Origin: an uncultured Chlamydiae bacterium
GTDB taxonomy: Bacteria; Chlamydiota; Chlamydiia; Chlamydiales; Parachlamydiaceae
Length of the DNA: 64,000 nucleotides
Direction of reading: 5' to 3'
NCBI GenBank assembly: GCA_963754655.1
Contig: CAVWGN010000001.1
Location: forward strand, 2,208,001-2,272,000
The position numbers and the translations under genes are program-made. Shown piece by piece: positions 51,161-52,279 of the stretch; position 1 is the first letter of the stretch; each line of letters begins with the position of its first letter. Under the pieces are notes generated by a model. That model ran no database searches. It saw only the letters and a list, made by a program, of their open reading frames with translations, and was not told where the DNA came from.

Positions 51161-52279
51161 ATGGATTCTTTATCTTCCTCTGGTTTGTTTTCTTATGAAC
51201 CTTTTGATTTTGATTGTTTAATTTTTCCCAATTCTGAGGATCAATTTGATAAGACTAAGGCGTTACCTGTAACTGATAATGAAATAAGTTCAAATAGCGC
51301 TTTTCTATCTGCTGAAGAATCTATTCAGAATTCTTTTTTTTTAAATCAAGAATTTTTTGCAAATCTTGATTTCCTTGAAACTGAACCTCTTCTCCTGCAA
51401 GGAAGAGTCACTACGGAACTCCCTTTGGCTTTAGCGCAGCCAATTTCTAATGTGGCAATCCCGATTATTCCAGTTTCTCCTGAACCTGAGGTTTCACCTA
51501 ATCACCTTCTCCTGCAAGAAACAGTCTCTGCAGAACTGCCCGAGGCTTTAGCGCAGCCAATTTCTAACGCGGCATTCCCCTTTATTCCGATTTCTTCTGA
51601 GCCTGAGGTTTCACCTAATAAAACGAGTAAAAAGCGCTCAAGAACCACTTTAGAACGCTCCTCAACACGAAAAAAACAAAAGACAGAATCTTCATCTACA
51701 ACAGAACAGTCCGATGTCAATCCAATCAATGAAAAAGAAAAAAAAAGAGTGGCATCTCAAAAATTTAGACATCGACAAATAGAAAAAAGCCAGAATTTAC
51801 AGAAAAGCATAAAGGATTCAAAAACCAGAGTAGAGCAATTATATCAACTCTATCAGCCTCATCGCTCGATAGAATTAGAGTTAAACCTTTTCATGGAGGA
51901 AAGTGAGTCAGAGCTTGAAACACATAGTGCGGAAATTAAAGAATTTAAAGAAACGCTGAAAGATTTACCAGCCGATCAACAAAAACAGGAAATAAGGAAA
52001 TTAAAGAATAAATTATCTGCTCGAAATAGTAGAACAAAAAAAAAGAATTTTATAGCTTCTTTAGAAAGTCAAAAAGAATTTTTAGAAAATAAGATTAAGG
52101 AAGTTTTTTCTAGCGCAATTGATAGTTTAAATCAACAAAACTTAAATTTGTTTCAAGAGAATAAACAATTGAAACAAGAAAATGCCCTATTAAATCAAAT
52201 GCTAAGCTCTCAGAGAAATATCTCTTCTGAATCAAATGCCTTCTCACAATCCTATTGGCCATCAGACAAGCAATATTAG
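51161..52279 (+). CDS. Eukaryote-like bZIP-domain protein (candidate nuclear effector)
   Basis: RKLKNKLSARNSRTKKKNFIASLESQKEFL fits N-x7-R-x9-L-x6-L. There is a second, degenerate basic region and an NLS-like KKRSR...RKKQK. Confidence 0.75.
   Translation: MDSLSSSGLFSYEPFDFDCLIFPNSEDQFDKTKALPVTDNEISSNSAFLSAEESIQNSFFLNQEFFANLDFLETEPLLLQGRVTTELPLALAQPISNVAIPIIPVSPEPEVSPNHLLLQETVSAELPEALAQPISNAAFPFIPISSEPEVSPNKTSKKRSRTTLERSSTRKKQKTESSSTTEQSDVNPINEKEKKRVASQKFRHRQIEKSQNLQKSIKDSKTRVEQLYQLYQPHRSIELELNLFMEESESELETHSAEIKEFKETLKDLPADQQKQEIRKLKNKLSARNSRTKKKNFIASLESQKEFLENKIKEVFSSAIDSLNQQNLNLFQENKQLKQENALLNQMLSSQRNISSESNAFSQSYWPSDKQY

Follow-up and report, generated by a model that had tools for sequence, protein, structure and literature searches.

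The question raised by this locus is what a protein with the look of a eukaryotic transcription factor is doing on the chromosome of an uncultured chlamydia-like bacterium. The window, meaning the whole stretch of 64,000 nucleotides that was analyzed, contains the open reading frame P0001, which is a real, intact gene. The initial annotation had described its product as a double-bZIP mimic of a eukaryotic transcription factor and as a secreted nucleomodulin. Our reading is that P0001 is a mimic of a eukaryote-type bZIP transcription factor, with one clear bZIP unit, that is exported, acts in the nucleus, and most likely activates host transcription. As a whole, that reading has a probability of about 0.5.

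The gene lies within an insertion of about 3 kb between trmB and map, which also holds kdoO and a repeat element (Table 1). The distance from trmB to map is 3,075 bp here versus 228 to 303 bp in the genomes G002, G003, and G004, from which the insertion is absent. The intergenic DNA between trmB and map in the relatives gives no alignment to the DNA of the window, and no relative of P0001 is found in 3 genomes of the same genus or in the other relatives searched. The bZIP gene is accessory and strain-specific. The kdoO gene was not found in the 3 same-genus genomes either. The window KdoO is 46% to 62% identical to 26 KdoO genes of the phylum, a level implying no close donor, and because no bZIP-like gene is among the kdoO neighbors of 6 other genomes, the bZIP-kdoO pair is not a conserved module. 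The arms of the repeat element have 129 matches at 74 loci genome-wide. Only subthreshold Rfam matches were obtained between positions 50000 and 55000, and no tRNA was found between 48000 and 56000. The promoter-like site ahead of P0001 is to be read as a consensus match only, there being 5 such sites in the region against a mean of 5.1 in shuffled sequence.

Table 1. Features of the bZIP gene, its insertion, and the flanking genes, with positions in the window
Feature	Position	Strand	Basis
trmB-like methyltransferase, conserved left flank of insertion	50154..50840	-	PF02390, synteny
Promoter-like site TTGATA-16-TATAAT	50997..51024	+	11 of 12 consensus positions, about 137 nt 5' of start codon
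Shine-Dalgarno-like AAGGA	51148..51152	+	8 nt ahead of ATG, read directly
Complete ORF P0001, eukaryote-like bZIP-type protein	51161..52279	+	ATG start, 372 aa plus stop, no internal stop
Acidic, Phe-rich, predicted disordered region, aa 1-76	51161..51388	+	Composition, alignment, pLDDT
Two tandem 39-aa copies (117 bp each), aa 77-154	51389..51622	+	TRF range 51389-51619, alignment
Bipartite NLS-like cluster KKRSR-x-RKKQK, aa 157-174	51629..51682	+	Motif
Upstream A unit, aa 192-233: K195-x7-R203-x9-L213; heptads L213, S220, L227; ended by P233	51734..51859	+	Pfam, hhalign
EF-x-x-TL-x-x-L motif, aa 261-270, family-conserved, L269 invariant	51941..51970	+	Alignment; just upstream of basic region
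Canonical bZIP basic region, aa 275-300	51983..52060	+	N283-x2-S286-A287-x2-S290-R291
Leucine zipper, aa 301-352	52061..52216	+	Invariant columns, dimer contacts
Hairpin, 14-bp stem, between convergent bZIP gene and kdoO	52299..52333	.	Terminator score for minus strand (kdoO)
kdoO (Kdo hydroxylase), second gene of insertion	52343..53233	-	PF11004 E = 8 × 10−113; NCBIfam KdoO equivalog 392.9 bits versus cut-off 300
Palindromic MITE-like repeat element	53442..53893	.	206-nt arms, 95% complementary, 40-nt loop; map-proximal edge of insertion
Methionine aminopeptidase (map), conserved right flank of insertion	53916..54809	+	PF00557, synteny

Judged from its sequence, the C-terminal unit (residues 275 to 352) is a genuine bZIP-type domain in the register of CREB, ATF, and AP-1. 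The basic region reads N283-K-L-S-A-R-N-S-R291-x9-L301, with small residues at the DNA-contact positions, and it is the sole N-x7-[RK]-x9-L match in P0001, just as had been annotated. A PROSITE-style pattern for the bZIP basic region, in what we take to be its usual form, matches once only in the genome (1,474,230 six-frame residues in 9,727 open segments), at the N283 site. A profile made from six other chlamydial bZIP basic regions ranks the same site 1st of the 9,727 segments with E = 0.0014, the next being at 0.72. In a PDB search, residues 270 to 315 alone, 46 residues comprising the basic region and two heptads, match CREB with E = 2.7 × 10−5, and 15 of the 16 matches at E ≤ 10 are bZIP factors. 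The family profile retrieves CREB (E = 9.5 × 10−5) together with MafG, Jun, JunD, FosB, MafA, BZLF1, and Fos, in alignments that start at the basic region, and by hand count bZIP factors make up 16 of the 19 matches that start at profile position 25 or before. The similarity to solved bZIPs runs through the basic region and not through the coil alone. The Atlas look-alikes of P0001 are all bZIP clusters, and at 0.83 to 0.89 they fall below the 0.9 line and are leads only.

True relatives of P0001 number just three (P0002, P0003, and P0005) among 1.84 billion representatives. The four family members are 28% to 47% identical with invariant DNA-contact and zipper residues, and N283, K284, R291, K294, L301, and L308 are the same in 4 of 4. 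No further member came from word-based searches, whether the query was P0001, the full alignment, or the C-terminal alignment, and none was found in metagenome contigs, viral contigs, or genome contigs. A metagenome contig that came up in the search with P0002 (L022) was a false positive, the match being a short word shared with an unrelated 281-aa ORF.

The regions ahead of the bZIP unit give P0001 the layout of a eukaryotic activator, with an acidic region, a repeat, an NLS-like cluster, and the bZIP in that order. The N-terminus was described from the outset as acidic and Phe-rich, and residues 1 to 80 do contain 15 D/E versus 2 K/R, along with 11 Phe (13.8%). It opens with a Ser-rich leader, MDSLSSS, and is free of K/R; in the alignment, its first residues are similar in the two full-length relatives, so that all three full-length family members are alike there. 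Residues 1 to 76 form a candidate secretion signal and acidic activation region. Disorder is predicted for residues 1 to 185, and the structure prediction has pLDDT below 50 over residues 1 to 159 with two short helices at 51 to 58 and 63 to 67. The tandem duplication and its SP motifs are also as annotated. TRF gives 2.0 copies with 84% matches and no indels, the copies at residues 77 to 115 and 116 to 154 have 28 of 39 residues identical, and Ser-Pro occurs at 106, 112, and 151. In P0002, the 39-aa unit is single-copy. The annotated NLS-like KKRSR...RKKQK is present and fits the bipartite form KR-x10-RKKQK at residues 158 to 174, a match of motif only to what we presume to be the bipartite consensus. 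At the matching position, both P0002 and P0003 have K/R clusters.

The mechanism that we propose has the following steps. P0001 would leave the bacterium by the type III system by means of its Ser-rich, K/R-free N-terminus, and the bipartite K/R cluster at residues 157 to 174 would then allow import into the host nucleus. A parallel, in-register homodimer would form through the C-terminal zipper at residues 301 to 352, as modeled, and DNA would be gripped by the basic region at residues 275 to 300 with predicted contacts from N283, S286, A287, S290, and R291. Since these contact residues are of the CREB/ATF and plant-bZIP type, the predicted targets are palindromes with an ACGT core, for example CRE or G-box-like sites. 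Host transcription would be altered, and most likely activated, by way of the acidic, Phe-rich, disordered N-terminal half, as its composition suggests. Secretion and nuclear action are plausible steps, read from motifs and composition. The gene also belongs to a set of highly divergent bZIP-type genes that occur here and there in the accessory genomes of related bacteria.

The alternative that survives best, and which we consider unlikely, shares export and nuclear entry with the activator reading, but has P0001 titrating host bZIPs as dominant-negative heterodimers, or repressing at their sites. The bZIP domain and the NLS-like cluster fit this equally, the upstream coiled coil could offer another surface for interaction, and some viral bZIPs are known to interfere with those of the host. 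The zipper bears on the choice. The Leu heptads as annotated hold for L323, L330, L337, and L344, which are spaced by seven, but not for one continuous run, the full order being L301, L308, V315, a one-residue skip, and then L323 to L344. The skip is conserved in the family, whose alignment is ungapped across the V315-L323 stretch, and Asn is found at the intervening core positions 327, 334, and 341, with 327 and 334 invariant. The skip and the absence of Asn from its usual place in the core of the second heptad set P0001 apart from textbook bZIPs. Three consecutive core Asn residues together with the conserved skip should favor self-pairing, which argues against heterodimers with host proteins.

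The predicted dimer likewise counts against titration. The ESMFold2 homodimer of residues 186 to 372 scores 0.49 versus 0.17 for the best of 3 controls. That mark is reached by 20 of 30 proteins solved as one-chain pairs and by only 1 of the 23 solved as single chains, counts that are only rough for P0001 because a custom alignment was used. With bZIP dimers already among the solved structures, the pass may reflect these known examples. At least 94% of contacts are shared between runs, and partner pLDDT is at least 79. The confident contacts are symmetric and in register over residues 309 to 352, including 323:323, 330:330, 337:337, and 344:344; the model is a parallel dimer, with heptads contiguous with the basic region. 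The acidic, Phe-rich N-terminus, with its resemblance to an activation region, also speaks for an activator rather than a titrating or repressing protein.

Another possibility, which we regard as distinctly unlikely, is that P0001 is never exported and serves within the bacterium as a DNA-binding or nucleoid protein with a bZIP-type fold. Its promoter-like site and ribosome-binding site are ordinary, and Chlamydia-type bacteria have eukaryote-like histones that work within the bacterial cell, with the histone-like protein Hc1 present in this genome. Against this, the 185-residue disordered acidic N-terminus and the NLS-like cluster have no obvious bacterial use, the gene is a strain-specific one in an insertion, and this eukaryote-style plan is repeated by proteins of 7 other genomes that look unrelated, each encoded at a different or accessory locus. 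As to the setting, we infer from gene content that the organism is obligately intracellular and chlamydia-like. Its type III ATPase scores 640 bits versus a cut-off of 604.75 that is exceeded in none of 14 control genomes, and it has four TLC nucleotide transporters, a family with matches in 0 of the 14 controls. A scan for the Chlam_OMP6 family is uninformative, having no match in any genome searched.

The proteins of the other genomes also bear on the premise that the bZIP fold is essentially confined to eukaryotes and some of their viruses. That premise needs qualifying, as bZIP-type proteins with a readable basic region are found in 8 of the 401 genomes sampled from the phylum, this one included, and bZIPs of Endozoicomonas have been published (PMC6213907). 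The seven other ORFs (in G139, G002, G011, G334, G253, G387, and G315) are each singletons. Like P0001, they have an acidic N-region, of 100 to 140 aa where delimited by a cluster-based script, then a K/R cluster, and then an N-x7-R basic region; as whole proteins, 4 of the 6 that were scanned pass a Pfam bZIP cut-off. Most of them differ from P0001 in having a canonical bZIP at the position of its decayed upstream unit and in their short zipper. Outside the bZIP core, they have no detectable kinship with P0001, pairwise BLAST in a ten-sequence database giving E values of at least 3 × 10−4, and tblastn with the seven finds no match in this genome. The genes on either side of the G139 gene are direct neighbors in this genome, and at the two loci examined, the window and G139, the bZIP genes are in lineage-specific insertions. 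This divergence, with the lineage-specific insertions at two loci, suggests rapid turnover, which is typical of host-interaction genes. In a further candidate, from G184, the reading frame is interrupted by TAG. No chlamydial bZIP protein was found in print, in a search of the literature on chlamydial and effector bZIPs whose coverage left out most subscription journals.

Improbable in our view is a third alternative, that a host eukaryotic bZIP gene was captured recently and persists as a passenger that has taken on no adapted role. That would directly explain the full layout of a eukaryotic transcription factor, and the location in an insertion agrees, as does a GC content of 34.6% (z = −1.5) versus 41.6% and 43.7% in the flanking genes. 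If the origin is eukaryotic and recent, the NLS and the acidic region may simply have come along with the gene instead of being adaptations. The database gives no such source, for no true eukaryotic relative is found among the 1.84 billion representatives, where the bZIP part has no eukaryotic match at E ≤ 10−3. The only eukaryotic match to P0001 at that level, the 3,272-aa catfish protein P0004 (E = 2.2 × 10−6), aligns only to the Pro/Ser/Glu-rich repeat at residues 73 to 125 and is low-complexity noise. Also against a passenger, the frame is intact with no trace of an intron and the codon usage is in line with that of the genome (z = +0.25), and the invariance of contact and zipper residues among members only 28% to 47% identical argues for selection.

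It is quite improbable that P0001 is a generic basic coiled coil whose bZIP likeness came by chance, although Pfam gives some reason to ask. The best three families for the whole protein are bZIP_1, bZIP_2, and bZIP_Maf, all below cut-off (PF00170 at 20.8 versus 27.6, PF07716 at 19.4 versus 22.3, and PF03131 at 19.3 versus 22). With the piece from residues 261 to 372, bZIP_2 rises above its cut-off at 23.3 versus 22.3, and bZIP_1 (26.2 versus 27.6) and Maf (21.2 versus 22) stay below, so the outcome of the HMM check that the initial annotation named is borderline. PF00170 is matched at E ≤ 1 in all 14 control genomes and above cut-off in 1 of them, so that this model alone is not specific, and coils other than bZIPs, such as NRBF2, are among the PDB matches of the family profile. 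Against chance is that the likeness is carried by the basic region, as seen in the CREB match of residues 270 to 315, and that the signature is unique in the genome with its residues invariant in the family. The PF00170 scan of the genome has 10 matches, among which only P0001 reaches the basic-region half (profile positions 3 to 63); 8 others start at position 25 or later, and one is short, covering 13 to 29 only. Candidates from elsewhere were rejected as coils, G207 from the PF00170 scan being a generic one, and G265, despite E = 5.9 × 10−5 with the family profile, being a coiled coil of Q/E-rich repeats that lacks a basic region.

There remains the upstream unit, which had been taken as the first half of a double bZIP. 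The degenerate basic stretch described there, KKRVASQKFRHRQ, is present at residues 194 to 206, but only the C-terminal unit bears out the idea in full, the upstream one being weakly bZIP-like. Its best Pfam family is bZIP_2, but at E = 0.024, and hhalign joins it to the C-terminal B unit with P = 0.0023 and the bZIP register kept. It has no significant match in the PDB search, scores −2.2 bits with the chlamydial bZIP basic-region profile, and has K195 in place of the signature Asn, which keeps it out of the bZIP class. In P0003, the equivalent unit has the full N-x7-R-x9-L signature. The upstream unit is probably a decayed second bZIP, now with some accessory role. The initial suggestion that the two halves pair within one molecule does not agree with the dimer model, whose confident interface is B-to-B only. 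A single chain clamping DNA with both units is very improbable: two basic-plus-heptad units 88 residues apart, the P0003 signature, and several basic regions in the G387 protein would suit it, but the model has no confident contact from residues 186 to 266 (residues left unnamed there are uncertain, which is no proof of non-contact), the upstream zipper has three heptads with Ser at one core position before it stops at P233, and the signature Asn, the PDB search, and the chlamydial profile all fail.

Returning to the exported activator as the preferred reading, we compare P0001 with systems already known. It shares with the CREB and ATF bZIPs the N-x7-R-x9-L spacing, a parallel dimeric zipper (predicted in P0001), and the order of activation region, NLS, and bZIP. 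With the CREB bZIP (1dh3), the basic region and first heptads align ungapped with 19 of 42 residues identical by hand count, among them N, A, R, S, R, KKK, and S-L-E. P0001 is unlike them in being encoded on a bacterial chromosome, in having no eukaryotic protein closer than the general family level, and in its zipper skip and Asn at three later core positions. It is also without KID or Q-rich regions, and the whole protein falls below Pfam cut-offs. Viral bZIPs are a case of a bZIP module of an intracellular parasite used in the host nucleus, and BZLF1 of Epstein-Barr virus (2c9l, E = 0.84 in the family-profile search) has no specific kinship to P0001 beyond family level. The TAL effectors of Xanthomonas are type III-secreted proteins, equipped with an NLS and an acidic activation region, that activate genes by direct binding to host promoters; DNA is read by 34-residue repeats, and the NLS and activation domain are C-terminal. 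In P0001, the predicted DNA reader is instead a bZIP and the acidic region is N-terminal. Its only repeat is the 39-aa duplication in the disordered region, and there is no TAL-type Pfam family, so the likeness is one of functional analogy and not of family membership.

Endozoicomonas resembles our case in that its bZIPs too are encoded by host-associated bacteria. The parts of the report consulted describe Nach1, Nach2, and a C/EBP-like protein, which are close to animal bZIPs, with 72% identity to human C/EBP over the bZIP region, discuss transfer of genes between host and bacterium as possible, and do not present the proteins as secreted effectors (PMC6213907). P0001 differs from the proteins so described in having no closeness to CNC or C/EBP and no near eukaryotic relative. 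Chlamydia trachomatis CT621 reaches the host cytoplasm and nucleus by type III secretion and has a zipper of four leucines; it is a DUF582 protein for which the consulted portions mention no bZIP basic region, and its family is stated there to be absent from Parachlamydia and other bacteria (PMC2784215). A Pfam scan of P0001 at E ≤ 10 has no match to DUF582.

Bacterial proteins sent to the host nucleus are known, but effectors that are sequence-specific transcription factors of eukaryote type are rare, the TAL effectors being the textbook case. As a wider proposal, which we hold tentatively and think possible rather than probable, environmental chlamydia-type bacteria may keep a fast-turning-over repertoire of injected bZIP factors, each with an acidic activation region, an NLS, and a bZIP, that bind host promoters and reprogram the protist host. 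The window gene would be a member with a duplicated and partly decayed bZIP unit. If this is true, the repertoire would parallel TAL effectors and viral bZIPs as a bacterial system that uses the transcription-factor fold of the host itself, and would be a natural case of such a fold re-used by a bacterium. The domain is small and tractable, at about 100 residues with a DNA target that would be readable in vitro, and it would give a testable handle on how symbionts and pathogens steer the gene expression of protist hosts.

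The C-terminal unit of P0001 (residues 275-352) carries the canonical basic region that the initial annotation had pointed to, with N283...R291...L301 as the only N-x7-[RK]-x9-L match within the protein. Across the six-frame translation of the genome (1,474,230 residues), what we take to be the PROSITE-style pattern for a bZIP basic region finds this site as its unique match. The leucine heptads proposed to follow are there in part: the zipper positions are L301, L308, V315, and then L323, L330, L337, and L344, with valine at 315 and a one-residue skip between the 2 runs, across which the family alignment is gap-free. 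In Pfam, bZIP_1, bZIP_2, and bZIP_Maf rank as the top 3 families, and a cut-off is passed only by the isolated segment, and there only for bZIP_2; whole P0001 is below all 3 cut-offs, whereas residues 261-372 scanned alone score 23.3 bits to bZIP_2 (cut-off 22.3) and 26.2 bits to bZIP_1 (cut-off 27.6).

Against the PDB, phmmer matches P0001 to CREB at E = 5e-4. The decisive control is the 46-residue stretch 270-315, which has the basic region and 2 heptads and omits the long coil. It matches CREB at E = 2.7e-5, and bZIP factors (CREB, Fos, FosB, ATF-2, C/EBP-beta, Pap1, and Jun) make up 15 of its 16 matches at E ≤ 10. A profile of the four-member family finds CREB at E = 9.5e-5 along with MafG, Jun, JunD, FosB, MafA, BZLF1, and Fos, in alignments to solved bZIPs that begin at the basic region, and some of its matches are coiled coils other than bZIP. 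PF00170 at E ≤ 1 matches all 14 control genomes, in one of them above the cut-off; among its 10 matches in the P0001 genome, P0001 alone extends into the basic-region half of the profile. The Atlas look-alikes of P0001 are bZIP clusters throughout, at scores of 0.83-0.89 that lie under the 0.9 line and so count as leads only. Overall, we consider the C-terminal unit to be probably a true bZIP of CREB/ATF-like fold, and for the bZIP identity we put the probability at about 0.85 to 0.9.

A phmmer search of 1.84 billion representatives at E ≤ 1e-3 returned 5 proteins including P0001 itself. The relatives are P0002 (334 residues, E = 1.3e-15), P0003 (490 residues, E = 6.8e-15), and P0005 (an 89-residue fragment, E = 4.6e-4), which all come from contigs 1.2-7.5 kb long, of metagenome or Logan origin; a catfish repeat protein was discarded, its only matching part being a low-complexity repeat. 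Besides the bZIP, the relatives have in common the leader residues, the K/R cluster, the upstream unit, and an EF-x-x-TL motif, and the whole two-unit module is present twice in P0003. Invariant in the family alignment are N283, K284, R291, K294, L301, L308, L323, N327, L330, N334, L337, and L344. Searches with P0001 and with the family profile found no relative in 3 same-genus genomes, 40 relatives, and 400 scored genomes of the phylum, where the weak matches inspected were generic coiled coils.

The phylum does hold other bZIP-type proteins. PF00170 at E ≤ 1e-3 gives 37 rows in 27 of 401 phylum genomes and none in the 14 controls. ORFs were inspected for the 11 rows, in 10 genomes, whose match begins at profile position 13 or earlier, and an N-x7-R basic region is present in 8 of the 10, the P0001 genome and 7 with singleton loci (see table); that tally leaves out G184 and G207, the latter a plain coiled coil on reading the ORF. 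In all 8 proteins the basic region is preceded by a K/R cluster (for example RKRKK or RKKRK), and ahead of the cluster, where the script could delimit it, lies an acidic region of 100-140 residues. Of 6 whole proteins scanned, 4 score above a Pfam cut-off for bZIP. The one from G387 reaches 47.7 bits with 3 Pfam-matched bZIP stretches, and by eye 4 basic regions in 2 pairs can be counted in it; the G315 protein also has an N-terminal tandem repeat. Past the bZIP core, no similarity is detectable among these proteins or to P0001, and tblastn of the other-genome proteins finds no match in the P0001 genome. The G139 gene is placed between 2 genes that are adjacent in the P0001 genome, and in G002, of the same genus, the bZIP gene is at a different locus whose neighbors have no counterpart there. 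When the 9,727 six-frame segments of the P0001 genome are scored with a profile of 6 of the other-genome basic regions, the P0001 C-terminal unit comes out on top (E = 0.0014, the next at 0.72).

In the "double bZIP" once proposed, the upstream unit (residues 192-233) reads K195-x7-R203-x9-L213 with 3 heptads (L213, S220, L227) and an end at P233. Its best Pfam family is bZIP_2 (E = 0.024), and hhalign lays it on the C-terminal unit in exact bZIP register (P = 0.0023), but it has no significant match in the PDB and a negative score with the chlamydial bZIP profile. The P0003 equivalent keeps the full N-x7-R-x9-L signature, and most other chlamydial bZIP proteins, read by eye, have a canonical bZIP here, with a Pro-containing motif after it. 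Pairing of the 2 halves within one chain is not borne out by the dimer model of residues 186-372, where the upstream unit makes no confident contact. The upstream unit may be a decayed bZIP copy, to which we give slightly less than even odds, and we do not read it as half of a single-chain clamp.

AlphaFold2 without an alignment (mean pLDDT 58.9) models residues 1-185 as disordered and predicts long helices at 189-266, 271-288, and 291-362. ESMFold2 on 2 copies of residues 186-372, with our own alignment supplied, scores 0.49 against 0.17 for the best of 3 controls, a mark reached by 20 of 30 proteins whose solved structure pairs copies of one chain and by 1 of 23 solved as single chains, and since bZIP dimers are already solved the pass may partly reflect those structures. 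The runs have contact agreement of at least 94% and partner pLDDT of at least 79. In the model, the confident contacts all fall within 309-352 and are symmetric (323:323, 330:330, 337:337, 344:344), describing a parallel in-register zipper. Asparagine occupies 3 successive core positions, 327 and 334 (both invariant) and 341, and this trio together with the conserved skip should favor self-pairing.

The N-terminal features of the initial annotation were all found. Residues 1-80 have 15 D/E, 2 K/R, and 11 Phe. The tandem duplication corresponds to residues 77-115 and 116-154 (28 of 39 identical), with Ser-Pro at 106, 112, and 151, and the unit is single in P0002, so the doubling is specific to the present gene. 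KKRSR...RKKQK occupies residues 157-174 and fits, in the form KR-x10-RKKQK, what we take to be the bipartite NLS consensus. Upstream of the gene, the promoter-like site counts as a consensus match alone, since such sites are no commoner in the region than in shuffled sequence.

Features of the region and the singleton bZIP-type loci of other phylum genomes
Feature	Position	Strand	Remarks
Repeat element, further copies	about 9897-10367; 34052-34527		
234-aa ORF	47619-48323	+	
367-aa protein	49044-50147	-	
trmB	50154-50840	-	left flank of insertion
TTGATA-16-TATAAT	50997-51024		promoter-like
AAGGA			Shine-Dalgarno-like, 8 nt 5' of P0001 ATG
P0001, bZIP-type ORF	51161-52279	+	ATG start, 372 codons, then stop
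117-bp unit	51389-51619		2.0 copies, 84% matches, no indels (Tandem Repeats Finder)
kdoO	52343-53233	-	convergent to bZIP gene; KdoO equivalog, 392.9 bits
Palindromic repeat element, MITE-like	53442-53893		452 bp; 206-nt arms, 95% complementary, 40-nt loop
map	53916-54809	+	right flank of insertion
616-aa protein	54811-56661	-	
CheA-like histidine kinase and receiver-SpoIIE phosphatase	57149-58375; 58384-60672	-; -	
Singleton bZIP-type locus	G139:C7:230431-230595		
Singleton bZIP-type locus	G002:C4:563650-563817		
Singleton bZIP-type locus	G011:C53:645-794		
Singleton bZIP-type locus	G334:C72:7503-7667		
Singleton bZIP-type locus	G253:C1:301496-301603		
Singleton bZIP-type locus	G387:C3:70797-71213		
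Singleton bZIP-type locus	G315:C9:296184-296321		

Between the divergent neighbors trmB and map lie 228-303 bp in G002, G003, and G004, against 3,075 bp here, and the extra DNA carries the bZIP gene, kdoO, and the MITE-like repeat element; in G001, map was not found inside the 12 kb examined. Because the outgroup G004 also has them adjacent, an insertion in the present lineage is the simpler reading. The bZIP gene (34.6% GC, z = -1.5) and kdoO (36.0%, z = -1.1) lie between flanking genes of 41.6% and 43.7%, and their codon usage is unremarkable. Not found in 3 congeners, kdoO occurs in 99 of the 400 phylum genomes (for its own family, in 11 of 45), its product is 46-62% identical to 26 phylum KdoO proteins, and its neighbors differ in 6 other genomes; it is an LPS-modification gene with a patchy distribution that has changed place. 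On the main contig, the repeat-element arm has 129 matches at 74 loci, most of them in inverted pairs, and no transposase was linked to the 452-bp element.

Around the insertion, the map product has an N-terminal SEC-C zinc-binding motif (PF02810, residues 4-22). The 616-residue protein beside it combines a hydrophobic segment at the N-terminus with a very long coiled coil rich in Q/E and matches no Pfam or NCBIfam family; it is kept next to map in 3 same-genus relatives at about 53-67% identity over the N-terminal part. No Pfam or NCBIfam family matches the 367- and 234-residue proteins either; the former has relatives at 37-66% identity in 4 related genomes examined, and the latter has no match at the loci of those 4.

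The genome (3.16 Mb in 2 contigs, the main one 38.8% GC) encodes a type III ATPase (640 bits, curated cut-off 604.75, exceeded in 0 of 14 controls), 4 TLC nucleotide transporters (no matches in the 14 controls), and an Hc1 histone-like protein, from which we infer an obligate intracellular, chlamydia-like bacterium. In this otherwise obligately intracellular-looking genome sit chemotaxis-type signaling genes, where the CheA-like kinase (Hpt, HATPase, CheW, receiver) adjoins the phosphatase.

In function, P0001 would be akin to TAL effectors and viral bZIPs. Its contact residues N283, S286, A287, S290, and R291 are, we assume, of the CREB/ATF and plant-bZIP type that reads ACGT-core palindromes, which would be the predicted DNA target. 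The protein may be exported by a type III system and then enter the nucleus by way of the K/R cluster, where its acidic, Phe-rich half could activate transcription. Bacterial bZIP genes close to those of animals are in print for Endozoicomonas (PMC6213907), and bZIP_1 and bZIP_2 are counted among the families of a prokaryote-wide survey (PMC7017128). CT621 of C. trachomatis, a nuclear protein delivered by type III secretion, has a leucine zipper within its DUF582 domain, and the accessible text of that report mentions no bZIP basic region (PMC2784215). In main texts, mostly outside subscription journals, no chlamydial bZIP protein was found in literature on bZIP or leucine zipper with chlamydiae, effectors, and nucleomodulins, and no bacterial bZIP effector in literature on Legionella or on amoebae with gene transfer. 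With bacterial bZIPs thus known and a chlamydial one not found in that literature, P0001 would be classed as a bZIP-based nucleomodulin or transcription-factor mimic.
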